Positions 7,249 through 40,394 of a stretch of DNA of 64,000 bases are shown here, piece by piece. This stretch comes from Actinomycetota bacterium (lineage in GTDB: Bacteria; Actinomycetota; Aquicultoria; CAJVYJ01; JAUVQD01), in NCBI GenBank assembly GCA_030679975.1, contig JAUXSL010000027.1:11447-75446 (forward strand), written 5' to 3'. The notes beneath the pieces are model-generated. The model was not told the DNA's origin. It saw only the letters and a list, made by a program, of their open reading frames with translations, and made no database searches. The number at the start of each line of letters is the position of its first letter. Position 1 is the stretch's first letter. The position numbers and the translations under genes are program-made.

Positions 7249-7335
7249 GACATCGCTGTTTATTGTACACGTCTACTATAAAATAACCAAACCGCGAATC
7301 GATCGATCGTCTCACTGGAAATGCTCCCCGACGTT

Positions 7336-7399
7336 GGGGTCAAATCTTTACTCTTGACTTTGCCTAACCAACCAAAGTCAAGAGTAAAGATTTGACCCC
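7336..7399. promoter_or_regulatory. Perfect 26-bp inverted repeat with a 12-nt spacer in a divergent promoter region
   Basis: GGGGTCAAATCTTTACTCTTGACTTT (7336-7361) is the exact reverse complement of 7374-7399. It lies between the divergent starts at 7248 and 7553. Confidence 0.4.
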
Positions 7400-7552
7400 A
7401 TTACAGGAACAAAAAGGTTTACTTGGTTCGCGGCATGTGCGTTAATTGGAATGGTCGTCAGAGGAGCGCCGGCTATCGCTTAGCGGTTAAGGCATCGGTA
7501 ATATTGGCGACGGGGAGGTCTTGGGATAGCGCGGAAAGAAAAACTGGCTATT

Positions 7553-8767: not shown

Positions 8768-8768
8768 A

Positions 8769-11698: not shown

Positions 11699-11723
11699 CT
11701 ATGACCTGCTCTTAGACCGACGT

Positions 11724-12764: not shown

Positions 12765-12765
12765 T

Positions 12766-15146: not shown

Positions 15147-15161
15147 GAGGATATCCTGGTA

Positions 15162-22804: not shown

Positions 22805-22805
22805 C

Positions 22806-23789: not shown

Positions 23790-24868
23790 GACTCAAAGAC
23801 CAGTGGTTGATTCGGCAAAGCGGAGGCTTGCTTCTGAGCTTCCTGAAGATCGGCTTTGACCATCATTTTGACCAGCTCGGGAAAAGCGATCTTAGGGCTC
23901 CAGCCAAGCCGTTTCTTGGCTTTGGCGGCATCCCCTTGAAGAATTTCGACTTCTGTCGGTCTAAAATAGCGCGGGTCTATCTCGATTATCGCTTCTCCGG
24001 TCCGGCTATTCAGGCCTTTTTGGCTGACCCCGCTGCCTTGCCAGACTAGATTGATGCCAACTTCCCTAAAAGCCTCTTCGCAGAATTCCTTGACCGAATG
24101 GGTCTTGCCGGTAGCTATGATGTAATCGTCCGGGTTGTCTTGCTGTAGCATCAACCACATTGCTTCAACATAATCCGGGGCGTAACCCCAGTCCCTCCTG
24201 GCGTTTAGGTTGCCAAGAAACAATTTTTTCTGCAGGCCGAGTGTTATACGAGCGGCGCTCATTGTGATCTTGCGGGTGACAAAGGTTTCGCCTCTGAGGG
24301 GGGACTCATGGTTAAACAGTATCCCATTATTGGCGTGGATGCCGTAGGCCTCCCGGTAGTTGACCGTTATCCAGTAGCTGTACAGCTTGGCCACGCCATA
24401 AGGGCTTCTGGGGTAAAAAGGTGTTTTTTCAGTTTGCGGAATCTCTTCTGTTTTACCATAGAGTTCGCTGGTAGCCGCATTATAGAAACGGGTCTTGGCG
24501 CACATCCCCAATATGCGCAAAGCCTCCAGCAAGCGCAGAGTGCCCAGGCCGTCCGCATTGGCGGTATATTCAGGGGACTCAAAAGAAACTTGAACGTGGC
24601 TCTGGGCCGCCAGATGGTATATCTCATCCGGCCGAGTTTCTTGAATGAGCCGGATTATGTTAGTGGAGTCCGTCACGTCGCCATAATGTAACAAAAAGTT
24701 TGGGTGCCCATCATGGGGGTCTTTATATAAATGGTCGATTCGCTGAGTGTTAAACGAAGAAGATCGTCTTTTAATGCCGTGGACCAGGTAATCTTTATTT
24801 AACAAGAATTCAGCCAGATAAGCCCCGTCTTGTCCCGTTGCGCCGGTTATTAAAGCTGTTCTACGCAT
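23786..24868 (-). CDS. gmd: GDP-mannose 4,6-dehydratase
   Basis: [21 protein letters not shown] near the N-terminus, and SELYG and [11 protein letters not shown] motifs. Start refined to the ATG at 24868. Confidence 0.9.
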
Positions 24869-24963
24869 GTGCCTCTTTCCCCTAAATAGAGCGTGTACCA
24901 CTGTTCATCATACGAACAACGATAATCGTCAGATATGCCAGCGTCAAGGTTGTCGGGGCATCT

Positions 24964-25686
24964 TCATTTTTTGCTCACAAACGCCATACCCGGCAGCCCT
25001 AATAGTTGCCATTGTACGTGCGACACAGTCGCTCTCTGGGTTTCCAGCAGCTCCTGGAGTGATTGCCAAGGACCGATATTGTAAGCTGACGGTGTTTGAA
25101 AGAGAACGTCGTGCGCCAAGAGGCCAGAGCCGGAAGGCAGCCGAGCCCACAGAGAGAGATCGCGCCTGGTGGATTGTCGCGAATGGTCACCGTCAATGTA
25201 GAGCAAAATTGGGCTTGAAATTCCTTCTAGTAGTCGGCCGGCGGTTTCAAATCCATCTCCGACAAATTGCTCCACCTTGGTTTTAGCAAGATATCGGCCC
25301 CTGGCCGCTCCGGGAAATTCAGGATGATTTGCATCCATTGAATCCACTGTGCATACTCGACAATCCCGCAGACCCAAGGCTTCTTTGACTTCCCAAAAGA
25401 GGCGAGCGGATTTACCATGATGAGTGCCCCATTCAACAATCAAGCAAGGCTGAACGAATGCTACAGCGGCAGCCATCAGCATCTGCTCGTTTAAAGGGTA
25501 GGGATGGGCGCCGATATTCGGGATTACTCTTTCCAGTAATAGTTCGCTAAGTTTCCAGCAATCGACCTCAAAAATTGAGCCGTTCTTAACGATATCGTTT
25601 TCTAAGTCGTCTTTAACGACATCGTTCCTATTATCGTATTTTTTTGCTTTAACGAAATTGAATGGATTATGGAAAAAGCATACCAC
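24964..25686 (-). CDS. Class I SAM-dependent methyltransferase (TylF/MycF/CmcI-like); candidate glycan chain-terminating O-methyltransferase
   Basis: LLYIDGDHS and surrounding fold resemble Methyltransf_24-type O-methyltransferases. It is adjacent to wzm/wzt. Confidence 0.5.
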   Translation of the reverse strand: MVCFFHNPFNFVKAKKYDNRNDVVKDDLENDIVKNGSIFEVDCWKLSELLLERVIPNIGAHPYPLNEQMLMAAAVAFVQPCLIVEWGTHHGKSARLFWEVKEALGLRDCRVCTVDSMDANHPEFPGAARGRYLAKTKVEQFVGDGFETAGRLLEGISSPILLYIDGDHSRQSTRRDLSLWARLPSGSGLLAHDVLFQTPSAYNIGPWQSLQELLETQRATVSHVQWQLLGLPGMAFVSKK

Positions 25687-25798
25687 CTCCGTTTATGATG
25701 GTATCGCTTAGCTGGGAGTTATGCAAATTAATAGATAACGAGCGACAGGCATATTGTTCCCTGTGCTGAGCGGACGCCCGTTTGTTGGGGGAGATAAG

Positions 25799-27202
25799 TC
25801 AAGTGGATGCCGCGACCTGCGTAGTTAAGCTTGAGCCGGTCTGTGATCGACTGGCGGCCAACCCCAGCAGGAACCAGAGTGCTTTTTGTGGCATGGTGCT
25901 AAGAAAGAAGCCCGCGACCAAAAACCCGATAATGCCGATCATCAGCATCGAACAATCGACGGCCAGGTCTTGTTTTAACAGGCCGGCGTAAGCCCACCGC
26001 GCCCGACTCAATTCGAGGAGGCTTAAGCCGAGCAGCCCAACAAACGCCGCCAAGCCAATGATGCCGGTCTCGACGGCTGTTTCGATGTAAGTGTTATGCG
26101 CTACCATCGCCTTGACATTGCCCAGGTTAATCCACGGCATGTAGGAAGCGTATTTATAAAAGGCAAATTTGTAGTTTTGGATGCCCACTCCGAGCACTGG
26201 ATGATCGAGCCATATGCGCCAAGCGGTCTGCCAAATATCCAACCGACCCGACCCTCCGCTAACCAGGATCGAGCTTAGGGAAAACCGTGGATCCAAGAGT
26301 GCCAGGAAGACGCCGCTGAGGGTAACTACAAAAAACAAGATCCTCAGGCGCTTCTTGAGTAACGGTTCGACGAAGCCGTTCCGAGACAGAAAAAAGAACA
26401 TGACGACAACAGCGACCATGGCTCCGCGAGACAAGTTCGCCAATGTACCGATAAGCAGCAAGAAGAAGACTGTCCAGTACAACGATCTCTTATTTCCCTG
26501 GTTTCCGTTGACGAAAGCGAAAGCCAAGGGGATAAGGATCAGGATATTTAAAGCCGAGTAATTAGGGTCCATAGAGACACCGATGGCTCGGTTGGCGCCG
26601 CCGAGGATAAATTGGAAGACACCGATGAGCGCTGCCGGTATACCGGCTAAAGTTAAAATAAGCAGAGTGTTCTTAAACGTGGCTTCGTCATGAGTAAGAT
26701 CGACGACCATAAAGTAGAGGACAACCAGTTGTATCATAGTTATCAGTCTGTCCACGCCGACGGCCGGGTATTGCGCTTGGGTGATGGATAGAGCTGAAAC
26801 GGCGAGAAATAGCATTAAGACCAGGCCGGCCTTGTTTCGGGGGTTTATGAAAACCTGCCGGGTCCGCGCGAGTCTAATAAACCAGGAAAAAAAAGCGACG
26901 ACGCCGATAAGCTTGAATGAGGAAAAATCGCTGTTAAGCGAAGCGAGACTCTCAAACGGCAACCAGGCGGCGATCATGTAGAGCCCCAGCTTAGGGTTGG
27001 GAAGCACCAAAAAGGCCAATATCGGTAAGACTGAAACACCAAGACCGATTCTCGGATTAAAGGCTACTACGGCGCCGAGGCCTAGCCCAAAGACGGCCAC
27101 CACCAGCGTGATCAGCCAATTTCGATCGAGGAGCCGATTAAGTTGGCGAGAGGGTAGGGCCGCTTCCATGTTAAAGTGCGGCCCCTTGGCCGACAGTTTC
27201 AT
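25799..27202 (-). CDS. Wzy_C / O-antigen ligase family polytopic membrane protein
   Basis: About 12 transmembrane helices. A large periplasmic loop with HNTYIETAVETG matches the Wzy_C ligase/polymerase motif region. Confidence 0.75.
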   Translation of the reverse strand: MKLSAKGPHFNMEAALPSRQLNRLLDRNWLITLVVAVFGLGLGAVVAFNPRIGLGVSVLPILAFLVLPNPKLGLYMIAAWLPFESLASLNSDFSSFKLIGVVAFFSWFIRLARTRQVFINPRNKAGLVLMLFLAVSALSITQAQYPAVGVDRLITMIQLVVLYFMVVDLTHDEATFKNTLLILTLAGIPAALIGVFQFILGGANRAIGVSMDPNYSALNILILIPLAFAFVNGNQGNKRSLYWTVFFLLLIGTLANLSRGAMVAVVVMFFFLSRNGFVEPLLKKRLRILFFVVTLSGVFLALLDPRFSLSSILVSGGSGRLDIWQTAWRIWLDHPVLGVGIQNYKFAFYKYASYMPWINLGNVKAMVAHNTYIETAVETGIIGLAAFVGLLGLSLLELSRARWAYAGLLKQDLAVDCSMLMIGIIGFLVAGFFLSTMPQKALWFLLGLAASRSQTGSSLTTQVAAST

Positions 27203-28028
27203 AAGCGATAGCCAGGCCGCATCCGGCGATGAGCGCGGCTAAGGCGGCGAAGATCAAGTTCGCGGTGATGTTGGGCGATGCCGGCGTGGTTGGTCTAACC
27301 GCGGCGGTCAGGATCTTGGTGCGCGGCCCTTCTTCGAGATTGTTCATCAATGTCTGCTCTTGGGCCAATAGTGACTGCTCGCGATCGACCAAGAGCAGTT
27401 TTTGATCGATTAGCCGCGGCCGCTGCTCCTCTAATGCCGCCAGCCTTTGGTTTAGAGCAAAGACGATTATCGCTTTTTCCGAGGCCGGAATATCCTTGTT
27501 TTCAGCTTGCGCCAGCTCTTTTTTGGCCGCCCGTATCTCACCATCTATATGGGTGGTGTCCAGCAACGGTTGTTTGATCTTGGATTTGCCGGAGTTTTGC
27601 TTGTACAGGATCTCGTCAAGCCATTTAAGCGTTGCGCGCGTTATACGCAGTTGAGCGGCTGTTTTCTCGGCCTCGGGATCGACTGTCTTGGCATAGGCAA
27701 TAAATCTTTGTGCCGCTAGGTTGGCTATTTTATGTACAGAAGTTTTGTCGGGCGCGCTGACGGTTATGGCTATGATGTTGGACCCGGTGGCGTTTTCCGC
27801 GTGAACCATTTTCTTCAGTTCCAAAACGCTATATTTGAACTTGCCCTTATTAATGACTTCAGTCAGCAGGGTATCGCTAACGATTACCTCATTTAAGGCT
27901 GTCGGTGTATTAAAGACGCCGAGGGCGACCGGGCTGAGCATGACAGTCGAGGATGCCTCGTAAGTAATCTGCCGGATATTGATAAGTCCGGTGGTCATCA
28001 TAGTCACGACCATAAAAAAAGCAATCAA
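27171..28028 (-). CDS. Wzz-like polysaccharide co-polymerase (chain-length determinant)
   Basis: N-terminal transmembrane helix, a long coiled-coil periplasmic region and a C-terminal transmembrane helix (LIFAALAALIAGCGLAIAY). Confidence 0.6.
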   Translation of the reverse strand: MIAFFMVVTMMTTGLINIRQITYEASSTVMLSPVALGVFNTPTALNEVIVSDTLLTEVINKGKFKYSVLELKKMVHAENATGSNIIAITVSAPDKTSVHKIANLAAQRFIAYAKTVDPEAEKTAAQLRITRATLKWLDEILYKQNSGKSKIKQPLLDTTHIDGEIRAAKKELAQAENKDIPASEKAIIVFALNQRLAALEEQRPRLIDQKLLLVDREQSLLAQEQTLMNNLEEGPRTKILTAAVRPTTPASPNITANLIFAALAALIAGCGLAIAYETVGQGAAL

Positions 28029-28186
28029 CCACTTTCTCCGACCGATGGAGTCGAGATACTCAGTTAATTCGAAGGGTTTTTCAGCCGGATCGATCCGGTC
28101 AAGCCGAATCTCTGTTTTACCGCTTATAGCTATCTCTCCCAGCCAAATAGTTGTAATCGGCAGTATAATATCATAATTGCCGCCTG

Positions 28187-29320
28187 CTATTTTACCGCTA
28201 TCGGCCGCTCTATGGCGACGGCCAGCGTCCTACATACATAGGTGACTTGCTTCTCACTCAATTGCGGGTACATCGGTAGGGATAAAACTTCTGTCGTTGC
28301 TAGTTCGCTTTGTGGATATGCTCCGGCGACCAGCCCTAAGTCAGCGTAGGCGGGTTGCAGATGGATGGGGAGCGGGTAATGAACGGCACTGTCGATGCCG
28401 CGATTCGCCAGTCTCTCCCTGATCGGGTCTCGCTCTTTGACGCGAATTGTATACTGGTGCCAGACATGTGTTCGGTTAGCGCCGGTTGCCGGTCGTTTGA
28501 CGCCCGGCAGTTCCGACAACAATGTATCATATAGGCCCGCACGCGAGCGCCGGGCCGCCGTCCAATTTTCGAGGCGCTTAAGTTTGGTTCTGACTACGGC
28601 GGCCTGCAGTTCGTCCAAGCGGCTGTTATATCCGATTTCTTCATGGTAATACTTCCGGCTGCTGCCGTGAGCTCTGAGCCGGCGGATTCGGCCGGCCGTT
28701 TCTTCGTCGTCGGTGACGATCATCCCACCGTCGCCGGCGCCGCCCAGATTTTTGCTGGGGAAGAAGCTTAGGCAGCCAATATTGCCGATCGATCCGACCC
28801 GTTTGTCCTTGTATTCGGCGCCGATAGCTTGGGCGCAATCTTCGACTACAGCGAGCTTGTATTTTCCGGCCAAGGTCATGATCTCAGCCATATCGGCCGG
28901 TTGTCCGTATAAGTGGACGGGCAAGATCGCGCGGGTGCGCGGGGTGATTTTAGCTTCGATCTGCCCGACATCCAAATTGTATGTCGCCGGATCGATATCG
29001 ACGAAGACAGGCACGGCGCCGCAATAAGATATAGCTTCGACGGTAGCGATAAAAGTAAACGGCGTAGTGATGACTTCGTCGCCGGGTCCAACACCTAAAG
29101 CACGCAAAGCCAGGTGCAGGGCGTCTGTTCCCGATGCGACCCCGACCGCGAAGCGGGCGCCGCAAAAGGCGGCGATCTCATCTTCCAGAGCGGCTACATT
29201 GGGGCCAAGGATAAACCTGCCGTCGGCCAGGGTTTGGTTAACGGCTGCCGTCAGTTCGTCTTTTATCTCTAAATACTGGGCCTTAAGATCAACGACGGGT
29301 ATCATCAATCGCTTAACCAC
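28187..29320 (-). CDS. DegT/DnrJ/EryC1-family PLP-dependent sugar aminotransferase (WbpE-like)
   Basis: N-terminal VDLKAQYLEIKDEL. A conserved lysine region (SFFPSKNLGGAGDGG). 377 aa. Confidence 0.85.
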   Translation of the reverse strand: MVKRLMIPVVDLKAQYLEIKDELTAAVNQTLADGRFILGPNVAALEDEIAAFCGARFAVGVASGTDALHLALRALGVGPGDEVITTPFTFIATVEAISYCGAVPVFVDIDPATYNLDVGQIEAKITPRTRAILPVHLYGQPADMAEIMTLAGKYKLAVVEDCAQAIGAEYKDKRVGSIGNIGCLSFFPSKNLGGAGDGGMIVTDDEETAGRIRRLRAHGSSRKYYHEEIGYNSRLDELQAAVVRTKLKRLENWTAARRSRAGLYDTLLSELPGVKRPATGANRTHVWHQYTIRVKERDPIRERLANRGIDSAVHYPLPIHLQPAYADLGLVAGAYPQSELATTEVLSLPMYPQLSEKQVTYVCRTLAVAIERPIAVK

Positions 29321-29797
29321 TCGTCCTGCGGCACATCGCGGATTATGCGGGCCGGGATACCCATGACCAGTTTGGCGTCCGGGACATCCTTAGTCACTAC
29401 CGAACCGGCAGCGACAAAAGCTTCGCGGCCGATAGTGATGCCCGGCAAAAGGAGCGAGGCGCCGCCGATGCGGGCGCCGCAAAAGGCGGCGATCTCATCT
29501 TCAAGAGCGGCTACATTGGGGCCAAGGATAAACCTTCCGTCGGCCAGAACTTGGTTAACGACTGCCGTCAGTTCGTCTTTTATTTCTAAATACTGGGCCT
29601 TAAGATCAACAACAGGTAGCATTAGCTGCTTAACCACTCGTCCTCCGGCACATCGCGGATTATACGGGCCGGGATACCCATGACCAGTTTGCCGTCGGGA
29701 ACATCCTTAGTTACTACCGAGCCGGCGGCGACAAAAGCTTCGCGACCGATAGTGATGCCCGGCAAAAGGAGCGAGGCGCCGCCGATGCGGGCGCCGC
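29153..29797. repeat. Tandem duplication of two 317-bp units, about 95% identical, bounded by 11-bp GCGGGCGCCGC microhomologies
   Basis: The GCGGGCGCCGC motif occurs at 29153-29163, 29470-29480 and 29787-29797. Each unit is the degT 5' end, the intergenic spacer, and the acetyltransferase 3' end. Confidence 0.85.
29305..29637 (-). pseudogene. Chimeric in-frame ORF created by the duplication: DegT N-terminus fused to acetyltransferase C-terminus
   Basis: Residues 1-56 are near-identical to the DegT N-terminus (MVKQLMLPVVDLKAQYLEIKDELTA...FCGAR). Residues 57-110 are near-identical to the acetyltransferase C-terminus (IGGASLLLPGITIGREAFVAAGSVV...). The junction is GAR, encoded by the microhomology. 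Confidence 0.5.
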
Positions 29798-30368
29798 GTT
29801 TAACGTGGGCGCCCTTGATCTTATTAAAACGATTGACGCCGCGTCCCATGGCATTGTCGTTAGTGGTTGTCACCATGGGCGCGATAAAGACGCGTTCCTC
29901 TAAGACAACATAAGCGGTGATGTAGGCGCCCGTCTGAATCTTAGTATATGAGCCGACTGAAACGTCGTTTTCAATAGTGACCCGACAGCCGATCATCACA
30001 AAATCGCTGATGTGACATCGCTCGCGCACAACGGCCAGATCGCCGATTAAGGTTGAGGTTCCGATGGTCGATCCGGCAAAAACGATGGCGCCGGAGCCGA
30101 TGATGCAATTGTCGCCGACAATTAGGGAAAGCGGATCGGCGCTGATTTTTACGGTACTTGTCGGTCCGGGGCGGGATTTTCTGCCTATAACTGCGTTATC
30201 GCCGATCACGACATTTTTTCCAATCGTGGTGCCGGCATGCACGACAACATTATTGCCGATTGTCACACCGGCGCCAATCCTGGCGTCCTCTGCCACGGCC
30301 GCATTTTTTCCAAGGATGATATCAGTCAACCACAATCTCCTTGAGATCGATAGGTCGGCCGTTTTCAT
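29622..30368 (-). CDS. Hexapeptide-repeat sugar N-acetyltransferase (WbpD/PglD-like)
   Basis: Left-handed beta-helix repeats (IGAGVTIGNNVVVHAGTTIGKNVVIGDNAVIG). The C-terminal LLLPGITIGREAFVAAGSVV is typical of UDP-amino-sugar acetyltransferases. Confidence 0.8.
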   Translation of the reverse strand: MKTADLSISRRLWLTDIILGKNAAVAEDARIGAGVTIGNNVVVHAGTTIGKNVVIGDNAVIGRKSRPGPTSTVKISADPLSLIVGDNCIIGSGAIVFAGSTIGTSTLIGDLAVVRERCHISDFVMIGCRVTIENDVSVGSYTKIQTGAYITAYVVLEERVFIAPMVTTTNDNAMGRGVNRFNKIKGAHVKRGARIGGASLLLPGITIGREAFVAAGSVVTKDVPDGKLVMGIPARIIRDVPEDEWLSS

Positions 30369-31404
30369 TGAGTGAGGCCTGGGCCGCTTGCAGAATTCTC
30401 AGTACATCGAGGCCATTTTGTCCGTCGGTAAGCGGACGACGACCGGTCCGGACGCAATCCAGAAAATGGTTGCATTCTAAGGCTAATGGTTCTTGCATTT
30501 TAATGCTGGGTATTAATATGTCGCCAAAGCGTAAGGTCAGGTCATCACCATATTTTTTATAGCCGGCCGACAAATCAGCCCCTTTGTCATAAAGGCGGAC
30601 TTTTTCCGAGCTTTCCATATCGTCGAAGACGACCATCTTCTTGCTGCCGACAACAGTGAATTTTCGGGTTTTGTGCGGGTCCAGCCAGCTGACATGTGAG
30701 TGGGTCGCGATTCCGCCTTCAAAAACGATGGTGACAAAGACAACATCTTGCACGCCCGGCCTCAGGCAGCACTGCCCAACAGCTGCGACGCTGAGCGGCT
30801 GTTTGCCGATTAAGTGGAGGGCGACGGCGACATCATGGGGCGCCAGGCTCCAGAGGGCGTTCTCGTCTTTTCGCACGGTGCCCAGGTTCAGGCGTTGAGA
30901 GTATAGATAGTAGACATCGCCTATATCTTGTTTGTCGATCAAAGACTTAATTAGTGTAATAGCCGGGTGGTACATCAGCAGGTGACCGACCATGAGTATC
31001 CGGTCGAAGCGGTCGGCGAGGTCTATCAGAGTCTGCGCCTCGCGAATATCCAGCGTAATCGGTTTTTCCACAAAGACATGCTTTCCGGCTTTGAGCGCCG
31101 CCTCGGCGTGCTTAAAGTGCATCGGCGCGGGCGAGGCTACGACCACGGCGTCGATCTCATCATCAAGAAATACTTCCGATATGTCGGCGGTAGTCCTTGT
31201 TTCCGGATACCGACTTGCCAGGGCTTCCAATCGAGCTATGGCCAGGTCGCAGACTGTCGTTAAATTGGATTCGGGTAGCTCGGCGAACTTGCGCACCAGG
31301 TTTTGGCCCCACCGGCCGGCGCCGATTACAGCTACATTGACAGGCTTGATTGGCTTCTTGTCGACCGGAGTCAGTTGCGCCGGCGGATCTTTTGTCATAT
31401 CCAC
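30322..31404 (-). CDS. Gfo/Idh/MocA-family NAD-dependent oxidoreductase (WbpB-like)
   Basis: N-terminal VAVIGAGRWGQNLVRKF Rossmann fold, and an EKPI motif. Confidence 0.8.
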   Translation of the reverse strand: MDMTKDPPAQLTPVDKKPIKPVNVAVIGAGRWGQNLVRKFAELPESNLTTVCDLAIARLEALASRYPETRTTADISEVFLDDEIDAVVVASPAPMHFKHAEAALKAGKHVFVEKPITLDIREAQTLIDLADRFDRILMVGHLLMYHPAITLIKSLIDKQDIGDVYYLYSQRLNLGTVRKDENALWSLAPHDVAVALHLIGKQPLSVAAVGQCCLRPGVQDVVFVTIVFEGGIATHSHVSWLDPHKTRKFTVVGSKKMVVFDDMESSEKVRLYDKGADLSAGYKKYGDDLTLRFGDILIPSIKMQEPLALECNHFLDCVRTGRRPLTDGQNGLDVLRILQAAQASLNENGRPIDLKEIVVD

Positions 31405-31407
31405 ATT

Positions 31408-32760
31408 CTACAACCCCACAATGTTCGGTCCGGCGAAAGCGGCGAAAGCGTTTCGGGTATCTATAATTAATTTGGAGCGTTTTGCCAGCTCTTCATAAGG
31501 ATAAGCGCTGTGGTCGGCGCAGAGTACGATGCAATCGAAGGACTCAATTGCTAAACTTTCCAGTATTTGTGAAGCGTAGCTGTCCGAGCCTAACGTCACG
31601 GATGGGATAAACGGGTCGCTGTAGATTACCTTCGCTTGAGCTCCAATCAAGAGCTCCATGATCTCTAGGCCGGGGGACATGCGGGCGTCGTCTATATCTT
31701 TCTTATACGCTACCCCCAAAATCAGGATTTTTGCCCCTCGCAGGCATTTACCGGCCTGATTTAGCGCTTTGTTGATCTTTTCCATAACAAACAAGGGCAT
31801 CTGCAGATTGACCTCGCCCGCCAATTCTATGAATCGGGTATGGAAGTCATACTGCCTGGCCTTCCAGGTCAGATAGAAAGGGTCGACCGGTATGCAATGT
31901 CCGCCGACCCCCGGCCCGGGGTAGAAGCTCATCATACCAAAAGGCTTGGTTGCCGCCGCGTCGACGACTTCCCAAACACTAATGCCCATCTTATCGCAGA
32001 GCAGTGCGAGTTCATTGACGAGGGCTATATTGACCGCTCGAAATGTGTTTTCAAAGACCTTGGTCATCTCCGCGACTTTTGGCGAGCTGACGGGCACGAT
32101 GGTCATGATCGTCTGCGAGTAAAGAGCGGTCGCGGTCTTTAGGCAGTTCTCGGTTACGCCTCCGACGACCTTGGAAATATTTTTTGTGGTAAACCGTTTA
32201 TTGCCCGGATCGACTCTTTCCGGTGAAAAAGCCAGGAAATAATCGACGCCGATTTCAAGGCCGCTCGCGGCCAGGATGGGCAAAACCACTTCTTCGGTCG
32301 TCCCGGGGAAGGTTGTGCTTTCCAAGACCACCATTTGTCCGGGGCGCAGGTATTGAGCGATCTCCTTGGTGGTTGAGATGATGTAGGAGATATCGGGGTC
32401 GCGGGCCGCGTCAAGCGGCGTCGGCACGCAGATTATGATGACATCGGCCTTGGCCAGCACCGAGTAATCATCGGTCGCCCTGATCTTCCCTGTCGCCACG
32501 AGCTCGGCCAGCTCTTTATCTTCGACGTCGGAAATATAATTTTGGCCGGCGTTTATCATCTCCATCCGCTCGACCTTTTGCTCGATGCCGATGACCGTAA
32601 AGCCGACTTTAGCTTTCTCCACCGCCAAGGGCAGGCCGACATAGCCCATACCGATGACGACGATGACGGCTGTTCGGGCGCTTATCTTTTCTTCAAGCGC
32701 CAGAATAGGTGGTGACGGCGCTTCTCTTAAAGCCAATTTCTCCTCGATGGGTCGATACAA
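31408..32760 (-). CDS. UDP-N-acetyl-D-glucosamine/mannosamine 6-dehydrogenase (WbpA/WecC-like)
   Basis: N-terminal VIGMGYVGLPLAV. Catalytic region GGHCIPVDP. 450 aa. Confidence 0.85.
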   Translation of the reverse strand: MYRPIEEKLALREAPSPPILALEEKISARTAVIVVIGMGYVGLPLAVEKAKVGFTVIGIEQKVERMEMINAGQNYISDVEDKELAELVATGKIRATDDYSVLAKADVIIICVPTPLDAARDPDISYIISTTKEIAQYLRPGQMVVLESTTFPGTTEEVVLPILAASGLEIGVDYFLAFSPERVDPGNKRFTTKNISKVVGGVTENCLKTATALYSQTIMTIVPVSSPKVAEMTKVFENTFRAVNIALVNELALLCDKMGISVWEVVDAAATKPFGMMSFYPGPGVGGHCIPVDPFYLTWKARQYDFHTRFIELAGEVNLQMPLFVMEKINKALNQAGKCLRGAKILILGVAYKKDIDDARMSPGLEIMELLIGAQAKVIYSDPFIPSVTLGSDSYASQILESLAIESFDCIVLCADHSAYPYEELAKRSKLIIDTRNAFAAFAGPNIVGL

Positions 32761-32928: not shown

Positions 32929-34962
32929 ATGGCAAAAAAACAAGTTGTAAGAAAGCCGGGCGTGAAAAGGCCTGTCGCAAGCACGGCGGCCGGCGGGCCA
33001 AAAGAAGTCATATCGTCATATGATAAGTGGATAATGTGGCTGGTCTGCGCGATTTTGATAGCGGTGCCGCTTATCTTTTCGCGCATATCCTATGACCAAT
33101 TTGATTTAGTGAAGTTAGCGGTATTTAAGGTTTTGGTCTTAGGTATCGTGGTTATCTGGGTAGCTAAGATGCTCACAAAGCCCGAGCCGATTAGTTGGAG
33201 TTGGCGGGAAGGTTTGCTGGCGGCGTTTGTCCTCGTGGCCATCATTTCAACTTTTACCTCGATACACATCCCAACGTCGCTGCACGGCAAATATAAGAGA
33301 TATGAAGGTCTTTTGACTTTCATTACCTATATAACCGCGTATTTTGTTGTAACTCAGACATTTAAAGGTAAGAACTGGCTAAGGATAATAGTCGAGGTCG
33401 TAAGCATCACCGGCGGGATTGTCGCTCTTTACGGTATTTTGCAGTTTATCGGCTTTGACCCCATTTATTGGGGCAGTGTGCCCTTCGAGGAACGGCGGAG
33501 TTTCTCCACTTTTGGTAATCCGGACCTATTGGCCGGTTATCTGGTTTTGGCTTTCCCTTGCGCGCTGGCGGCTTACTTTAACAAGGGCAAGATAGCTTGG
33601 TTGCACGGAGTGTCGGCGTTCGTTCTAGCCTCGGGCCTTTTGACGGCTTTGACCCGGGGTGGTTGGTTGGGGGCGCTTGTCAGTGTGATCTGCATCGGCG
33701 TGCTTTTGGGCCGGCGCCTGAAGCTCTATTGGAAGAAAGTCCTCGTCCTGATCGTGCCTGTTGCCATTGTCTTGTTCGCATTAGTGATTTATTCATCGGC
33801 CATTAATTTAGATATAGTCTCCAAGTTTCAAGGGGCTTTCCAGCTTAACAGCGGCACGGCTCTGGGCCGCTTTGAAATTTGGAAGGCCGGTTGGCGGATG
33901 GTGAAGGACAGACCGTTATTCGGGCAGGGTTTGGATACCTACCGTTTAGCGTCTGAGCATTTTGAAACTAAACGATATGTCCAGTCGGTAGCAGGAACAA
34001 CTGTCTCAGATAACGCCCATAATTACTTTATTCAACTGGCGGCCGGCGGCGGCCCGATGGCGGCTCTATTGCTGTATGGGTTTTTTATCGCTTGGATAGT
34101 CAGGGCTTTAAGAATCAGACGCCGGCTGGCTGATGATAGCGAGTATCTCTTGGTAAGCTGTATCATCGCCGCCGTGATCGGTTATTTAGCGACCATGCTT
34201 GTGGGGATCAGCATCGTCGGCGCGACTTCGACTTTTTGGCTGTTGATGGGGTGTGTAACCGGATTCACGCTAAAACTTGACCCGGCCTGTCGATTCCTGG
34301 ACCTATCGAAGCGGTGGCAGGAGGCTAAGCTGGCGGCGGCGGCGGCGGCGGTAGTGGTTGTAACCGTGGTTATCGCCGGCTTTGCCGTGGCCATGTATCT
34401 TGGCGATGTCTATTTGATCAAGGGTCTGCGGTCTGCCGCCGGTGGGCAAGAGCAGCTGGCCCTGGGCAATCTTAATACGGCTATTTCGCTGTATCCGGGG
34501 AACGGGCGGATAATGTCTGAGTTGGGGCAGGCTTATATGCGCTGGGCAAGCGGGGCGGTGCAACAAAGAGATAAAAAAACCTTTACATATAGTTCACAGA
34601 AAGCTATTGAATCTTTTCGCCGTGCCAGTTTGGCGGAGCCGCCGGAAGTCGATTATCGTGTCTTTTTGGCCAATTCGTATAGTTATGTCGGTCAGACTCA
34701 AGAGGCTTTTAAGATATTAGATGAGATACTTCTTAAGCAACGGCCCTACTCCCTTCCGGCCAATCTTCTCTATGGCCAACTCTTAACGGATGAGAAGAGA
34801 AAAGCTGAGGCGGTAAAGTATTACAAAACAGCATTATCGCTAGCGTCCGCGACGCAACCGGCTCTATCCGCGCTGGCCGATTATTACAAAGAAATCGGCA
34901 ACAGAGGCAAAGCGGACTATTACCAGAAGCAATTGGACAAGGTCAACGCCGCGCCTCAGTGA
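32929..34962 (+). CDS. Wzy_C (O-antigen ligase family) membrane domain fused to C-terminal TPR repeats; candidate O-oligosaccharyltransferase
   Basis: About 12 transmembrane helices. The periplasmic-loop motif HNYFIQLAAGGGPMAA matches the Wzy_C family. Residues from about 480 to 677 form TPR-like helical repeats. SD GAGGTAG lies before the ATG. Confidence 0.75.
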   Translation: MAKKQVVRKPGVKRPVASTAAGGPKEVISSYDKWIMWLVCAILIAVPLIFSRISYDQFDLVKLAVFKVLVLGIVVIWVAKMLTKPEPISWSWREGLLAAFVLVAIISTFTSIHIPTSLHGKYKRYEGLLTFITYITAYFVVTQTFKGKNWLRIIVEVVSITGGIVALYGILQFIGFDPIYWGSVPFEERRSFSTFGNPDLLAGYLVLAFPCALAAYFNKGKIAWLHGVSAFVLASGLLTALTRGGWLGALVSVICIGVLLGRRLKLYWKKVLVLIVPVAIVLFALVIYSSAINLDIVSKFQGAFQLNSGTALGRFEIWKAGWRMVKDRPLFGQGLDTYRLASEHFETKRYVQSVAGTTVSDNAHNYFIQLAAGGGPMAALLLYGFFIAWIVRALRIRRRLADDSEYLLVSCIIAAVIGYLATMLVGISIVGATSTFWLLMGCVTGFTLKLDPACRFLDLSKRWQEAKLAAAAAAVVVVTVVIAGFAVAMYLGDVYLIKGLRSAAGGQEQLALGNLNTAISLYPGNGRIMSELGQAYMRWASGAVQQRDKKTFTYSSQKAIESFRRASLAEPPEVDYRVFLANSYSYVGQTQEAFKILDEILLKQRPYSLPANLLYGQLLTDEKRKAEAVKYYKTALSLASATQPALSALADYYKEIGNRGKADYYQKQLDKVNAAPQ

Positions 34963-35039
34963 GCGCATAGAACCCTAGCTGCTTCAAAACAAGCCTTTTC
35001 TCCTGTATAATTACCGCACTTTAAATTTGAGGTGCGCAA

Positions 35040-35783
35040 ATGGCACGAAGTTCCGTCGTCACCGAATCCGAAGCTGTCGTCAGCCGGACGCATAAGAAAA
35101 AATATAGACCGTGGCCGAGTCGGGCCATTCTTGTTTTTCTGGCCGGGGGCTTAATAGTGCTCCTTGCAGTCGGTTACCTGGGATTCTTTGGCTCCACCGA
35201 AACGAAAACCAAAGCGGCGGCCGGCCGGCTCAAGCTTCAAGGCCAAAGACTATATCGGGCCAAGAAGTACGACCAGGCGGCAGATTTTCTCAACCGCTAT
35301 CTGGGATTGGCCCCCAAAGATCAGCGTACCCGGGAACTGTTGGCCCAGATTTATTGGCAGATAGGCGACGGCTGGCGGGCATTCGCTGAATTGAATATCG
35401 TTAATCGATCTTCCGCACCAAATGGAGATCGTTTTTACAGACTGGGCTTGCTCGCCGATCAGATGGGAAAAAGGGATGAATCGGTCGTTTTTCTCAAGAA
35501 AGCTGTCGCTTTAAAGCCGGAATCTATGCTCTTCCGGGTAGAATTGGCAAAATCGCTAACGAAGCTGGAACACTATGATGAGGCGGTCGTCCAGTGGCAG
35601 GAGGCGATCGACCGATTGCCGGACAAAGACCTCTATGCCGCTGTCATCTACGCGGAGCTCGGAGATGTTCTGCGCCTAAAAGGCGATATCGAAAAAGCTA
35701 AGGAGGCATATCGCCGGGGATTGGAGATCGAGCCGGGCAACGTCTACCTCCAGGCTCAGATAGCCGGCGCCGGCGGTCAATAA
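35040..35783 (+). CDS. Membrane-anchored TPR-repeat protein
   Basis: One N-terminal transmembrane helix (ILVFLAGGLIVLLAVGYLGFF) followed by 4-5 TPR repeats. Confidence 0.7.
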   Translation: MARSSVVTESEAVVSRTHKKKYRPWPSRAILVFLAGGLIVLLAVGYLGFFGSTETKTKAAAGRLKLQGQRLYRAKKYDQAADFLNRYLGLAPKDQRTRELLAQIYWQIGDGWRAFAELNIVNRSSAPNGDRFYRLGLLADQMGKRDESVVFLKKAVALKPESMLFRVELAKSLTKLEHYDEAVVQWQEAIDRLPDKDLYAAVIYAELGDVLRLKGDIEKAKEAYRRGLEIEPGNVYLQAQIAGAGGQ

Positions 35784-35786: not shown

Positions 35787-38700
35787 GTGAGTAAAGCTTT
35801 ACAACGCTATAAAATCAGATTTTGGCCTCTTTTGATAACGCTGGTCTACCTTCTTATGGCCGGCGGCGCATCCGGCAAAGCCGGTGTCAATAAAGCTATC
35901 AGTGTGCCCGCGGAGACAGCCATTGTCTCGGTTAGCCACAATCGCCGCGCGGACAGCATCGGGGCTTTCGGTCTGACATCCGGCGAACTTAGTGGCATTG
36001 AGCTGGTATTGCGCCGGCCGGATGGTTGGTTTTGGGACCCGATTACTCTTGACTGGAAGCCGGAGGCGACCTGGCAAAAGAGCTCGTTGATACCAATGAG
36101 CCCGACGACTTTCGCTTGGGACGAGATTTTAGCCGCGCCTCCCTGCGACGGAGCCAGCCTTCTCCTATTAGCCAGGGCCGTAAGCCGCCAAGGTCAGCCG
36201 GACCCGAAGCCGGCGGGCGCGCGTATCTATATCGATAACATCAAGCCGGTCGTCACCAAGTTCGACGTCGAGGGCGCGCGTTGGTCGAATAGCCGCGAAG
36301 CGACGCTAAGCCTTGAAGCTTCCGGCGCTACCACGATACAATTAGCCGAATCCCGTCAAGGTCTAAGCGCCGCCAAGAATATCCGCTACCGCGACAAAAT
36401 CAAATTCCAGTTCTCCGAAGGAGACGGGCTAAAGACGCTTTACGGAGCGTTTTTAGATAGCGTCGGGAATCGGGTAGTGGTTCCCTTAAACGGCGGACCG
36501 ATCGGTTTGGATACGGCGTCGCCGGCCGTCAACCGGTTGGCGCCGCCCGCCGAGGCCCGATCTGTCAGTGTCGGCGCCAAGATCAGCGCCGGGTTTATCG
36601 ACGACAGCGATATCGATCCCTCCACCCTAAAGAGCGAATTTGGTCCCGACGCGACTTTTTATCTCACGCAAGGTAGTCGCTGGACGACCGCGACGGTCGC
36701 TTACGACCCCAAAAAAAAGACAGCGGTGCTCACACCGGCTGAGCCCTTGGTAAAAGGTCAAGTATACACAGCCCACCTAAAGCCGGGCATTAAAGATATT
36801 GCCGGCAATGAATTTGACGACGACATCTCATGGAGCTTTCAGGCTGTTGAGCCCAGCCCGCCGGAAACAAAGATTGACGGCTTGCCGGAAGTGATGTCGG
36901 GGAAGACCAAGGTCTTGATCGAAGGAAGCGCTCATGATCCGGACGGGGTCGGGGCGGTTTCGGTGTTTGTCCGTGACGGCGACGGCCATTATTGGGATTC
37001 AATTTCAGCTACCTGGACGGCGGAACCGTTTGCGAATGACGCTATGCTTGCCCGCAAGGGGCAAAAAGAGACCGGCTGGGAGTGGCGTTGGCCTTTGCCG
37101 AGCAGTGACGGAGCCCGTTTTGTCGTGACGGCGGCGGCAAAAGATCGCTTTCTGGCGGAAGACCCCACACCGGCCGGCACTTCTCTGTTGGTGGACAACC
37201 AGCCGCCGCAAGTCGAGCGTTTGATCTTACAGAACGATCTGCCGGTTACCGCTTCAGATACGATCACTATAACCAGTCTGGTTAAAGGGGCGACGCAAAT
37301 GAGATTCGCGGCCGACTCTGCCGCTCTTAAATTTCAACGGTGGCAGTCGTTTAGCGCTGAAACCAGTTTTACTTTGCCGAAAAAGGAAGGCCGAAAAGAA
37401 GTATTCGGGCAGTGGCGGGACGCGCTCGGCAATTATTCCCGAGTAGGGGAGGCTGGGAGCAAAGGTAGGATCATCTTAGATAAAAGCGGCCCTAAGGTTG
37501 CATCGACCTATCCCCACGATCAGGTTGAAAACGTAAATATCTCAGTGATGGTTACGGCCAATTTCGAAGAGATCAGCCTGGATGAAACCGGGATAACCAC
37601 CGATACATTCAAGCTAATCGGTCCCGACAAAAATCCGGTTCCGGCCGCGGTCACATTCGATCAGCTGTCAAAGACGGCTACGCTCACGCCCATTGAGTTC
37701 TTGCGATACGGGACCGGCTATAGAGTGATATTAAGCGGCGCCATCAAAGATCGGCTTGGTAACACCATCGGTCATGATTATGGCTGGACATTCAAGACGG
37801 TCGGGCTGTCGACGCATCCGCCGGCTCGTCCTCAAGGTTTGACGGTGGCGGCGGCGGAGCAAGGCGACAAGGTGTCGTGGTCGCCTCCTTTGGGAATCGA
37901 CAAGGGCAACGACTTCGACCCGCCCGTCCAGGGCGGCTACAACATTTATCGCGCCTCGTCTCCTGACGGACCGTTTGAGCTGGTAAACAAACTCCCCGTA
38001 ACGGCTTTGACTTACTACGACAAAGACTACGAACGGCCGGGCCGAAGGTTTTACATGGTCAAAGCGGTCGATGCCGGAGGCAGTGAAAGTGAAGGTTCGC
38101 CGGTCTCCGCCAATGATGATATAAACACGTTGATTAAAATCGCCCCCGGTAAGCCGGCCACCGTGACGCTCTCAAATGACGCCCTGAGACTGGAAGTGCC
38201 GAAGATCGAGCGACCGATGACGCTGCGCATCAAGACCAGGGAGGCGTTAGGCGCGCCGGCTACGCCGATGCGTCTCTTTCAGCTGGATTCAAGCCCGACC
38301 GTCAACCTTAAGACCTTGTCTTTAGTCTTGCCCGGAGACCCTATGGGGGCGACGATAATGCGGAGGGAAGAAGGCGGGTGGCAGCCACTGGCGGACGTGA
38401 CTTATTCGCGCGATCCGTTGACTCACATCGTCACAGTCGGGCCGGTCTCGTCAAGCGGACAATACTTAGTCGTCAATCGCGCGGACTTGACTCCGCCGCC
38501 GTCGGCCCCGGAAGTACATCTGTCAACGAGAGAGGGAAAGCCGCTTGTCGGTTGGTCCAAGATCAACGATCCGGACAGCGGCATCAGGGCCTACCGGCTG
38601 TGGCGCACGGAAACAACCATGACTTTCGAAACTTCGACGACCGCGGCCGCCGTCAATCTGCCGCCCGGCATGAACAGGTTCTTGGATAACAGCGCGGAGC

Positions 38701-40394
38701 CCGGCCACACCTATTACTATTGGGTCGCCGGTGTAAACGGCGCCGATTTGCCGAGTCCCATCGGGGGAGCGGATCCGACCGTCACGGCGCGCCCGATGGT
38801 GGAGCATCGGCCGCGTGTCGCCGGCGTCGTTAATTGTCAGTCATGTCATATTGAAAGACGGGTCCAAAGTGATATGGGGTTGATCGACTGCCGCCGCTGT
38901 CATGACGGGACCGGCAGCCTTGTCATCATTACCGGCTACGATAGCGGAAGTTCGCTCTGCCGGTCATGCCATGCGCTCAGCCGGGGACAGCTCAACCGGG
39001 CGGGCGGCTCGCAGATCGGGCGGTGCGGCGGTTGCCATACCAAGGGAGATTCACCGATCCTGGTTAGCGATAATGGTCACACCGGCCGCTCGGGACTGGA
39101 CTCAATGGTTTGCTCCAGCTGCCACAGCCTCCACCGACCGGGGGACAGTAAAAGCGGGTATTTGGTCGACCCGGCTAATACAAGGCGGTCTTGGTCGGGC
39201 TCTAAAAGCGATTTTTGCCTTGTCTGTCATCGCGCGACCGGCTGGCCGGAAGCGACCGAGACTTTGGAGAGGTTTGTGGCAAGGGACGTCATTTTTTCCA
39301 GCATGGAGAGCGCCCGGTTGTTTCCGGGGTGGTCAAAAACCGGTTGGAAACAGTCGGCGCATCAAAGAGTAGCCGGGTGTTTGACCTGCCATGAGCCGCA
39401 CAAGTCCCCGAACGCGCGGTTGGTCGCTTTTCGCGCCAAAGGGGGCAAGTATATCTACTTTTCGGAGTTTAGCGCTTCCGAAGCTCTTTGCTATGAATGC
39501 CACCGCCCCGGCGGCCCGAAGGGCGCGGTCGATTTATTGACGTTGTCGCGGTTGCCTTCGACCCATAGCGCCGGCACCTTCAGTGTCCACAGCGATGCTG
39601 AAACGGCGTCGCAGCTGGGCATATTAAACAGGCATGTAAATTGCAACGATTGTCATAATGTCCACGAATCGCAGAGGGAGAAGCGGGAACTCTTTTCCAA
39701 CAGGGTTTCCGGCGCTTTAAGGGGAGTACCCGGCGTTGAGCCGCTAAACGGCGGAGCGGGCTTGCCGCCGAGTTATACGGAGGTCTACGCCGCGGGGCGC
39801 GAGTACCAGATCTGCTTCAAGTGCCATTCTTCATATGTGAAGATGCCGCCGGCCGGCATGACCGATTACGCGATCAAGTTTAATCCGGCCAATTCTTCAT
39901 ACCATCCGGTGGAAACGAGGGGCAAAAACCGCGGGATAAAATCGGTGGCCTTTGTTAATGGTTGGAACCAGAAAGCGACAATGTATTGTTCCGATTGTCA
40001 CGCCAATCGGAAGGAGCCGGGTGTGGCCCGCGGGCCGCACGGGTCCAAGTTTAACCCTATGCTGGCCGGTGAGTTTGGCCCGCTTGCCGACGCCGGGCGC
40101 CAAGACGAGCTCTGCTACCAATGCCACAACCAAAAGACCTATAAGGAAGGTCGAGAAGGTAGCCGCTGGCAAGGTCCGGGCGGGCATGCCGACCACATAA
40201 GCAAGGACAAAATCGGGTGTTTTAAATGCCACGAAACCCATGGCAGCAGTTTTACCGACCATCTGATAAAGATTATGCAACCTCTTGAAGCTTCGGGGAC
40301 CACAGCTTTTTCACACGATTCGACCGGCGGCGGTTGCATAGCTACCTGTCACACGCGGCCGAATGACAGCTATCAATATAAACACGCGTATTAG
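35787..40394 (+). CDS. Large secreted multidomain protein: signal peptide, Ig-like (SbsA_Ig/Big-like) and FN3-like modules, and a C-terminal multihaem c-type cytochrome domain
   Basis: Hydrophobic N-terminus (PLLITLVYLLMAGGASG). Two SbsA_Ig-like modules, each ending in a ...AGNEF/...LGNTIGHDYGW pattern. Two FN3-like modules (YNIYRAS..., YRLWRTE...). Over the last 520 aa (nt about 38830-40394) there are 13 CxxCH motifs, many as CxxCHxxH, plus one CxxxCH. Confidence 0.8.
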   Translation: MSKALQRYKIRFWPLLITLVYLLMAGGASGKAGVNKAISVPAETAIVSVSHNRRADSIGAFGLTSGELSGIELVLRRPDGWFWDPITLDWKPEATWQKSSLIPMSPTTFAWDEILAAPPCDGASLLLLARAVSRQGQPDPKPAGARIYIDNIKPVVTKFDVEGARWSNSREATLSLEASGATTIQLAESRQGLSAAKNIRYRDKIKFQFSEGDGLKTLYGAFLDSVGNRVVVPLNGGPIGLDTASPAVNRLAPPAEARSVSVGAKISAGFIDDSDIDPSTLKSEFGPDATFYLTQGSRWTTATVAYDPKKKTAVLTPAEPLVKGQVYTAHLKPGIKDIAGNEFDDDISWSFQAVEPSPPETKIDGLPEVMSGKTKVLIEGSAHDPDGVGAVSVFVRDGDGHYWDSISATWTAEPFANDAMLARKGQKETGWEWRWPLPSSDGARFVVTAAAKDRFLAEDPTPAGTSLLVDNQPPQVERLILQNDLPVTASDTITITSLVKGATQMRFAADSAALKFQRWQSFSAETSFTLPKKEGRKEVFGQWRDALGNYSRVGEAGSKGRIILDKSGPKVASTYPHDQVENVNISVMVTANFEEISLDETGITTDTFKLIGPDKNPVPAAVTFDQLSKTATLTPIEFLRYGTGYRVILSGAIKDRLGNTIGHDYGWTFKTVGLSTHPPARPQGLTVAAAEQGDKVSWSPPLGIDKGNDFDPPVQGGYNIYRASSPDGPFELVNKLPVTALTYYDKDYERPGRRFYMVKAVDAGGSESEGSPVSANDDINTLIKIAPGKPATVTLSNDALRLEVPKIERPMTLRIKTREALGAPATPMRLFQLDSSPTVNLKTLSLVLPGDPMGATIMRREEGGWQPLADVTYSRDPLTHIVTVGPVSSSGQYLVVNRADLTPPPSAPEVHLSTREGKPLVGWSKINDPDSGIRAYRLWRTETTMTFETSTTAAAVNLPPGMNRFLDNSAEPGHTYYYWVAGVNGADLPSPIGGADPTVTARPMVEHRPRVAGVVNCQSCHIERRVQSDMGLIDCRRCHDGTGSLVIITGYDSGSSLCRSCHALSRGQLNRAGGSQIGRCGGCHTKGDSPILVSDNGHTGRSGLDSMVCSSCHSLHRPGDSKSGYLVDPANTRRSWSGSKSDFCLVCHRATGWPEATETLERFVARDVIFSSMESARLFPGWSKTGWKQSAHQRVAGCLTCHEPHKSPNARLVAFRAKGGKYIYFSEFSASEALCYECHRPGGPKGAVDLLTLSRLPSTHSAGTFSVHSDAETASQLGILNRHVNCNDCHNVHESQREKRELFSNRVSGALRGVPGVEPLNGGAGLPPSYTEVYAAGREYQICFKCHSSYVKMPPAGMTDYAIKFNPANSSYHPVETRGKNRGIKSVAFVNGWNQKATMYCSDCHANRKEPGVARGPHGSKFNPMLAGEFGPLADAGRQDELCYQCHNQKTYKEGREGSRWQGPGGHADHISKDKIGCFKCHETHGSSFTDHLIKIMQPLEASGTTAFSHDSTGGGCIATCHTRPNDSYQYKHAY

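Follow-up and report, generated by a model that had tools for sequence, protein, structure and literature searches.

A 64-kb stretch of DNA from contig JAUXSL010000027.1 (hereafter the window, meaning the whole of the stretch analysed) encodes a large protein whose sequence supports its description as a multihaem c-type cytochrome, probably exported, carried on an Ig-like/FN3 scaffold. The gene (35787..40394; coordinates refer to the forward strand unless the reverse strand is stated) has a GTG start and specifies 1535 aa, arranged as a signal-like N-terminus, a nine-module haem-free stalk and a C-terminal 14-haem domain. It is preceded by a gene for a membrane-anchored TPR protein, and there is good support for a cytochrome of this type at the cell surface, paired with the TPR protein. 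A role in extracellular electron transfer (EET) is likely. The window matches a metagenome-assembled genome (MAG) deposited at NCBI as 'Actinomycetota bacterium' (MDP1808327.1, MDP1808328.1 and MDP1808333.1), and the host, an uncultured actinobacterium of marine sediment, belongs to a lineage of the monoderm type.

The N-terminus of the cytochrome, MSKALQRYKIRFWPLLITLVYLLMAGGASG, has, by inspection and hydropathy, an n-region of basic character followed by a hydrophobic core, with A-S-G as a cleavage-type site. The signal-peptide-like portion covers residues 1–30 (35787..35876) and looks like a Sec signal. Residues 13–24 are helical in an AlphaFold2 (AF2) model of the N-terminal part, and the signal-like N-termini of homologues have cleavage sites of the AQA/ADA type. 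The GTG start is supported by conservation of 'AL+RYKI' in the homologue P0003.

The haem domain consists of the C-terminal 532 aa (residues 1004–1535, 38796..40391). It contains 13 CxxCH motifs, with their first Cys at residues 1017, 1035, 1058, 1080, 1109, 1144, 1198, 1235, 1286, 1343, 1401, 1443 and 1478, and a single CxxxCH at residue 1517. Haem motifs account for 28 of the 29 Cys in the protein, and shuffling the protein gives a mean of 0.011 CxxCH motifs (maximum 1). Both the open reading frame call and the motif count agree with the initial annotation, which had described a 1535-aa frame with 13 CxxCH and one CxxxCH in its C-terminal part. Its statement that most of these motifs are of the CxxCHxxH form was wrong, as this form is found in 4 of the 13. 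Conservation of the haem motifs had been set beforehand as a check. All 14 are invariant both in homologues at 46–76% identity and in those at 35–52% identity. A further 13 His are invariant across the homologues (35–76% identity), and these probably act as distal haem ligands.

Profile searches divide the protein in the same way. Four multihaem families score above their curated Pfam cut-offs in the last third, namely Paired_CXXCH_1 (66.3 versus 20.6), Mtrc-MtrF_II-IV_dom (54.5 versus 30), Cytochrome_C7 (46.4 versus 24.8) and Cytochrom_c3_2 (38.2 versus 25), and Big_5 is matched twice (96 bits, above cut-off) in the N-terminal two thirds. Paired_CXXCH_1, Cytochrom_c3_2, Cytochrome_C7 and Big_5 were thus recovered as the initial annotation had anticipated, while fn3 stayed below its cut-off. 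The TIGR03508 model for DmsE/MtrA decahaem cytochromes gives 37.7 bits, well short of its cut-off of 192.2. The sole match of the haem domain in the Protein Data Bank (PDB) is a weak and local profile match to OcwA (PDB 6I5B, E 8.4e-9). In the structural model the confidently predicted part of the domain appears most like MtrA, a linear decahaem wire.

The stalk follows the plan (A-B-Big_5)x2-FN3-MID-FN3, nine modules over ~970 residues. The first cassette (35904..36854) comprises module A (residues 40–156, a Big_7-like Ig module), module B (157–245) and a Big_5 module (246–356), which were delimited with module hidden Markov models (HMMs) built from the homologue alignment, hhalign and Pfam Big_5. 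The second cassette (36855..37808; A, 357–474; B, 475–566; Big_5, 567–674) is a duplicate of the first. Residues 40–356 and 357–674 are 28% identical over 294 aa in BLASTP (E 2.9e-29), and hhalign gives probabilities of 98.8% for the two A modules, 97.1% for the two B modules and 97.7% for the two Big_5 modules. The strongest Big_5 stretch in Pfam is residues 565–671, and module A overlaps Pfam Big_7 matches in larger relatives. The neck that follows (37809..38795) is constant in the homologue alignment and consists of an FN3-like module (675–778), the MID module (779–900) and a second FN3-like module (901–1003). The fn3 match at residues 910–986 reaches 17.9 bits against a Pfam cut-off of 25, and the equivalent module of P0141 attains the cut-off. 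MID has no match in the PDB or Pfam, and when the PDB was searched by sequence, neither MID nor module A, the stalk or the haem domain had a significant match. An AF2 model of residues 1–1010 built from 5 sequences (pLDDT 54.5, pTM 0.25) is of low confidence and was used for secondary structure alone; it is all-beta with an N-terminal helix. The Ig-like and FN3-like modules of the four-module scaffold first proposed are present, but there are more than four, in two A-B-Big_5 cassettes followed by FN3-MID-FN3. Haem motifs are absent from the stalk (residues 31–1003), which has a single Cys and 10 His.

The same architecture recurs in related proteins. A word-index search returned five full-length homologues at 51–100% identity, and full-length homologues at 46–76% identity occur in seven loci. 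Scans of genomes and metagenomes added further homologues in MAGs of cold-seep Actinomycetes and in Loki's Castle sediment contigs, and the homologues as a group originate from deep-sea and cold-seep sediments. The arrangement (A-B-Big_5)n-FN3-MID-FN3 followed by the 13+1-haem domain is found in the window protein, P0002–P0005 and P0138–P0142. The last five of these share the full FN3-MID-FN3-haem signature, with all of the haem motifs and the 13 further His. The number of A-B-Big_5 cassettes varies from one in P0140, through two in others, to at least four in P0142 (2783 aa). A stalk would be expected to vary in this way while the domain that it carries stays constant. As a separate observation, residues 602–766 of P0142, ahead of its cassettes, match the 'disaggregatase related repeat' (PF06848).

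The haem domain by itself is widespread. It gave 1268 word-index matches, most of them free-standing proteins ~460 aa in length that belong to Acidobacteriota, among other phyla, and an exhaustive search found 1172 representatives, 141 of them new. Of the latter, 80 have a length of 900 aa or more, and in most of these the last haem motif is near the C-terminus (the position of the HMM domain itself was not tabulated). Big_5-like modules, recognised by HMMs derived from the window protein, are present in 17 of these large proteins. The earlier view that the architecture is confined to a few organisms does not survive this search. Haem domains of this type end many very large uncharacterised proteins (900–6474 aa), and the stalked design may be common in sediments. 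Literature searches found no description of a stalked Big_5-multihaem cytochrome family. The free-standing relatives sit among other multihaem cytochromes and NHL-propeller proteins, and one Bacteroidales locus has a ResB-CcsA fusion gene ahead of them. In loci L023–L087, free-standing relatives are very often within a few kb of repeated paired-CXXCH proteins resembling the cytochrome MHC488 described below, although the HMM behind this observation may cross-match other paired-CXXCH cytochromes. ResB and CcsA also adjoin distant relatives in L066 and L003. In L066, a metagenome locus (3089–11491, GC content 0.65), genes for a TPR protein with a transmembrane (TM) helix and a Thr-rich linker, a 1649-aa Big_5-containing multihaem cytochrome with 13 CxxCH, ResB and CcsA are consecutive.

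The TPR partner gene (35040..35783) encodes a 247-aa protein with Pfam TPR matches and, by hydropathy, a TM helix at about residues 24–55. Its stop codon lies 3 nt upstream of the cytochrome start. A TPR orthologue directly precedes the big cytochrome gene in all eight loci that include the 5' end, and the two genes are missing together from L013, L014, L096 and L097. This distribution shows the pair as a two-gene unit that appears to be gained and lost together. In P0140 the stalk is preceded, within a single polypeptide, by a TM helix and a TPR region that is 36% identical to the window TPR protein (E 6e-17). The N-terminus is basic in every TPR orthologue, and a single hydrophobic helix comes after it. 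Together with the fusion in P0140, this topology places the TPR domain, by inference, on the same outer side of the membrane as the cytochrome. The small TPR gene, to which no specific role had previously been given, is thus the cytochrome-specific neighbour. Neither the L066 TM-TPR gene nor the small TPR genes found in L013, L096 and L097 qualify as partner orthologues; they score 23–42 bits, compared with 324–405 bits for true orthologues, and count as generic TPR proteins. A promoter-like site, TTCAAA-17-TATAAT (34983..35011), lies in the 77-nt gap between the TPR gene and the gene upstream of it, and matches the consensus at 10 of 12 positions; this is a pattern match only.

The gene upstream of the gap (WzyTPR, 32929..34962) encodes a 677-aa protein with a Wzy_C domain (75.6 bits), ~12 hydrophobic segments and a C-terminal TPR region. 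The three-gene block of WzyTPR, TPR partner and cytochrome is present as first described. Comparison with related loci indicates that it is a remnant of a six-gene array, BacT-WzyTPR-Rex-MHC488-TPR-bigMHC (MHC, multihaem cytochrome), and that WzyTPR is not specific to the cytochrome. The array is found in six related loci (L001, L002, which is partial, L007/L008, L009, L010 and L011). MHC488 contains 14 CxxCH motifs, one CxxxCH and an N-terminal membrane helix. Searches with tblastn for BacT, Rex and MHC488 found none anywhere in the window. Other relatives carry different subsets of the array. L012 has WzyTPR-MHC482-TPR-bigMHC behind pilus genes, without Rex; L014 has BacT-WzyTPR-Rex-MHC491, with neither the TPR gene nor the big cytochrome; and L013, L096 and L097 have GT4-BacT-WzyTPR-Rex and no cytochromes. 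These arrangements suggest that Rex-MHC488 is a module separate from the TPR-bigMHC pair, and that BacT-WzyTPR-Rex is an older backbone of the lineage. Because this backbone is kept in the cytochrome-free loci L013, L096 and L097, WzyTPR is not dedicated to the cytochrome.

It seems reasonably probable from these observations that the protein is a Sec-exported envelope multihaem cytochrome, with its haem head on a stalk and associated with the TPR partner, that acts as the outer element of an EET system. Its haems would be loaded by a synthase of the System II type (ResB/CcsA), with genes outside the window, and on the outer side of the membrane the TPR protein would dock or anchor the cytochrome or help in its maturation. 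The stalk, with a cassette number that varies among relatives, would set the distance between head and membrane in a walled monoderm. The head would then exchange electrons with extracellular or surface partners such as minerals, humics or other cells. In the relatives, the upstream donor would be the membrane-anchored, 15-haem MHC488, under control of the redox regulator Rex; the window may have lost or relocated both. Multihaem cytochromes at the surface of monoderms have been described (PMC7829351, PMC6703420), EET clusters of Dethiobacter encode MtoA-like multihaem cytochromes with Ig-like domains together with TPR genes (PMC10376724), and Fe(III)-reducing Actinomycetota combine multihaem cytochromes with Rex (PMC9686372). 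EET across a thick wall in cells that lack an outer membrane is known from a few cultured Firmicutes, and for Actinomycetota such knowledge rests on gene lists alone. A compact two-gene unit that recurs with stalk-length variants, a fusion and part-lacking loci yields testable predictions about anchoring, reach and partners.

Several observations weigh against an EET function of this kind. Within the 64-kb window there are no cytochrome maturation genes, no quinol dehydrogenase, and no second cytochrome or other CxxCH protein, and the Rex-MHC488 pair of the relatives is missing. The big cytochrome has no visible wall anchor (SLH, LPXTG, lipobox or C-terminal helix), and hydropathy reveals no C-terminal hydrophobic segment. 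A Foldseek search of the PDB with the haem-domain model gave no match, and the first six haem sites of that model are of low confidence. The TM-TPR protein of L066, which occupies the corresponding place in that distant locus, resembles the window TPR protein in a generic, TPR-like manner. Finally, the stalk is electrically insulating because it is haem-free, and a protein held at its N-terminus would have its haems far from a membrane donor. Nothing that was found accounts for electrons reaching the head past such a stalk.

One alternative concerns a single step of this mechanism and is compatible with the remainder of it. The TPR partner could be a dedicated System II apocytochrome chaperone, similar to CcmI or NrfG, rather than an anchor, and serve the long substrate or its CxxxCH site; this is a tentative proposal and less likely than not, although it stands up best among the alternatives. 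CcmI consists of a membrane helix plus an external TPR domain, and the TPR partner has the same design. The gene order of L066, where ResB and CcsA follow the TM-TPR and cytochrome genes, and the presence of one CxxxCH in each of the big cytochrome and MHC488 also fit a chaperone. The similarity to TPR_CcmH_CycH in Pfam is weak and below threshold (28.9 versus a cut-off of 42), however, and a permanent fusion of the TPR region to its substrate, as in P0140, fits an anchor better. In addition, L014 keeps MHC491 without a TPR gene, and the generic character of the L066 TPR protein also counts against a chaperone.

A long stalk that does not conduct, in a window with no donor close by, is also what would be expected if the protein were a redox-active, adhesin-like surface protein rather than a respiratory conduit, serving electron uptake, oxidant detoxification or charge storage. 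Electrons would in that case come from oxidation of Fe(II), from a cathode or from partner cells. Wires of the MtrA/MtoA type run in both directions (PMC10376724), and the sediment and cold-seep origin of the family fits syntrophy. The relatives nevertheless keep a Rex-regulated membrane cytochrome alongside the big one, as expected for respiration. A redox-active but non-respiratory function is rather unlikely. The present data do not separate the direction or purpose of electron flow.

The gene content upstream of the block raises the question of glycosylation. A locus for glycan biosynthesis and export, recognised with Pfam and NCBIfam, extends over 731..32760 on the reverse strand; its membership in the cytochrome system is unproven. 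It encodes more than 10 glycosyltransferases, a WbpA/B/D/E-like set, GDP-mannose dehydratase and epimerase, UDP-GlcNAc 2-epimerase and an AsnB-like protein, and an exporter made up of Wzm (21956–22999, reverse strand) and Wzt with a Wzt_C domain (20646–21959, reverse strand). It further includes a second Wzy_C protein (25799–27202, reverse strand) and a Wzz-like protein. The initial annotation had noted the Wzy_C+TPR gene, the TPR gene and this large locus with Wzm/Wzt beside the cytochrome gene, and Pfam and NCBIfam bear this out. It went on to read the arrangement as that of Gram-positive slg loci. The protein would then be an S-layer-type glycoprotein, with WzyTPR as its dedicated O-oligosaccharyltransferase and the Wzm/Wzt locus as the source of the glycan.

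We regard this explanation too as unlikely, and place it on a par with the adhesin-like function. Wzy_C is the family of O-oligosaccharyltransferases of the PglL/WsaB type, and WzyTPR adjoins cytochrome genes in eight loci, including L012 with its differing upstream context. The exporter, the glycosyltransferases, the nucleotide-sugar genes and two Wzy_C candidates of an slg-type layout are all there, and glycan genes flank the cytochrome cassette in every homologous locus. The stalk contains invariant Pro/Ser/Thr linkers, such as EPSPPETK, and an Ig-like surface protein is encoded near GT4-BacT-WzyTPR in cytochrome-free relatives. The Wzy_C family includes ligases and polymerases besides oligosaccharyltransferases, and the specificity expected of a dedicated enzyme is missing. 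WzyTPR keeps its position in the three cytochrome-free loci and occurs with MHC491 alone in L014, it has ~120 homologues whereas orthologues of the big cytochrome number fewer than 10, and rex separates it from the cytochrome genes in five of the eight TPR-bigMHC loci (L001, L007/L008, L009, L010 and L011; of the other three, the window and L012 are without Rex and L002 is cut). No initiating phosphoglycosyl transferase (Bac_transf or Glycos_transf_4) is encoded in the window, although BacT is present in homologous loci. The GC content of the glycan locus is 0.49 compared with 0.57 for the cytochrome gene, and its gene content varies between homologous loci. The S-layer identity finds no support, as neither SLH nor any other S-layer anchoring domain is matched in Pfam at E≤1, and Big_5, the sole Ig-type Pfam match, is not specific to S-layer proteins. 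The S-layer and glycosylation reading as a whole is unproven. Glycosylation of the big cytochrome is possible, and the idea is tempered by the ligase-like neighbour being a general envelope gene of the lineage.

Several features of the glycan genes deserve description in their own right. Four adjacent genes at 28187–32760 (reverse strand) encode, by their Pfam domains, a UDP-sugar 6-dehydrogenase, a GFO/IDH/MocA oxidoreductase, a hexapeptide acetyltransferase and a DegT aminotransferase; this is the WbpA/B/D/E domain set and would correspond to the synthesis of a 2,3-diacetamido uronic acid sugar. The second Wzy_C protein and the Wzz-like chain-length protein (25799–28028, reverse strand) lie inside a locus that also bears Wzm/Wzt, so the locus mixes parts of two export routes. 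In L013 (3551–6100) and L097 (2161–4188), a 675–849-aa Ig-like protein with Big_13/Big_3 matches is encoded just upstream of GT4-BacT-WzyTPR-Rex, and is possibly a surface-protein target of the same glycan genes. L012 (2265–10998) contains two Wzy_C+TPR paralogues, one beside a prepilin peptidase and the second after PilM/PilO genes and directly before the cytochrome genes. Since pilin glycosylation by Wzy_C enzymes is known from other bacteria, the L012 paralogues may likewise be protein-directed transferases.

An elaboration of the stalked arrangement would combine anchoring and glycosylation in a length-tunable tether, in which the TPR protein holds the N-terminus, the non-conducting stalk is matched in cassette number to the thickness of the envelope and O-glycosylated by WzyTPR, and the head is mobile. 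This is improbable. If true, the 14-haem head would move between a membrane-anchored cytochrome and outside acceptors, and WzyTPR would have its eukaryotic counterpart in the TPR-containing O-mannosyltransferases that act on the beta-sandwich domains of cadherins. Least probable is that the gene is a decaying remnant, as the absence of Rex, MHC488 and BacT from the window and the 77 nt left between WzyTPR and TPR might suggest, since the frame is intact over 4.6 kb, all haem motifs and family-invariant residues are kept, a promoter-like site lies upstream, and genes for the partners could lie in another part of the genome.

The remainder of the window is largely housekeeping. The genes 3' of the cytochrome encode hisC-like, DAHP synthase, prephenate dehydrogenase, EPSP synthase and UPF0182 proteins, followed by cmk, plsC, ispH, der, plsY and gpsA, and then pstA/B-like genes, phoU and pgeF-yggS-sepF. 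Between gpsA and an ABC permease gene is a 3.3-kb low-GC stretch (54372–57670, GC content 0.46–0.51) with no Pfam-recognisable gene. A 41-nt direct repeat begins right after the gpsA stop, its two copies (54372–54412 and 55372–55412) being 95% identical and exactly 1000 nt apart, and inverted repeats of 23–30 nt are also present; a small insertion or duplication may account for the stretch. Scans for Rfam families and tRNA genes gave no matches in the window. The Rex operator TTGTGAA-N6-TTCACAA, allowing up to 3 mismatches, was not found near the locus, and the single match in the window is at chance level.

Among characterised systems, the haem domain invites comparison with MtrA/DmsE of the Shewanella Mtr complex (PDB 6R2Q chain A). 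MtrA has 10 haems compared with 14 haem sites here, and the window lineage has neither an outer membrane nor a porin partner for the cytochrome, whose haem domain stands behind a stalk of ~970 residues. The chaperone comparison is with CcmI/CycH and NrfG of System I, which are likewise outer-face, membrane-anchored TPR proteins encoded beside a cytochrome substrate. It differs in the sub-threshold TPR_CcmH_CycH match, the expectation of System II in the host lineage and the TPR-cytochrome fusion in one relative. The WsaB/PglL enzymes and slg loci share with the window a Wzy_C-family protein beside a surface-protein gene and a Wzm/Wzt locus. WzyTPR has in addition a C-terminal TPR region, the protein is conserved in cytochrome-free relatives, and no S-layer domain was found in its candidate target.

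The nearest published cases are the exported multihaem cytochromes OcwA and OmhA, the S-layer fusions of anaerobic methanotrophic archaea (ANME) and the Ig-like MtoA-like proteins of Dethiobacter (PMC6703420, PMC7829351, PMC9012536, PMC10376724). OcwA of Thermincola potens (PDB 6I5B), with 9 haems, and OmhA of Carboxydothermus ferrireducens, with 11, are terminal reductases at the surface of Gram-positive, monoderm cells (PMC6703420, PMC7829351). They have no match to the stalk described here, and no paired TPR partner has been described for them. The giant cytochromes MHC-A/B/C of ANME likewise join many haem sites to surface domains free of haem, in cells with no outer membrane. They carry S-layer, peptidase-M6-like or pectin-lyase-like domains and are proposed to carry electrons through the envelope (PMC9012536). 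These proteins have an archaeal S-layer domain (DUF1608) with a linker haem and C-terminal membrane helices, whereas a scaffold haem site, a Pfam S-layer match and a C-terminal hydrophobic segment are all absent from the window protein. The MtoA/MtrD-like proteins of Dethiobacter alkaliphilus combine an MtrA-like multihaem module with Ig-like domains in a monoderm, and their clusters encode TPR and NHL proteins, for which a part in positioning the cytochromes at the surface was proposed (PMC10376724). Their Ig-like domains are C-terminal, whereas the stalk here is N-terminal, is built of repeated A-B-Big_5 cassettes and belongs to a different phylum; the comparison is one of domain description and not of sequence relatedness. 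Surface multihaem cytochromes fused to scaffolds were thus already known, and what appears to be new, and shared with none of these cases, is the domain order, the variation in cassette number and the pairing with a TPR protein.

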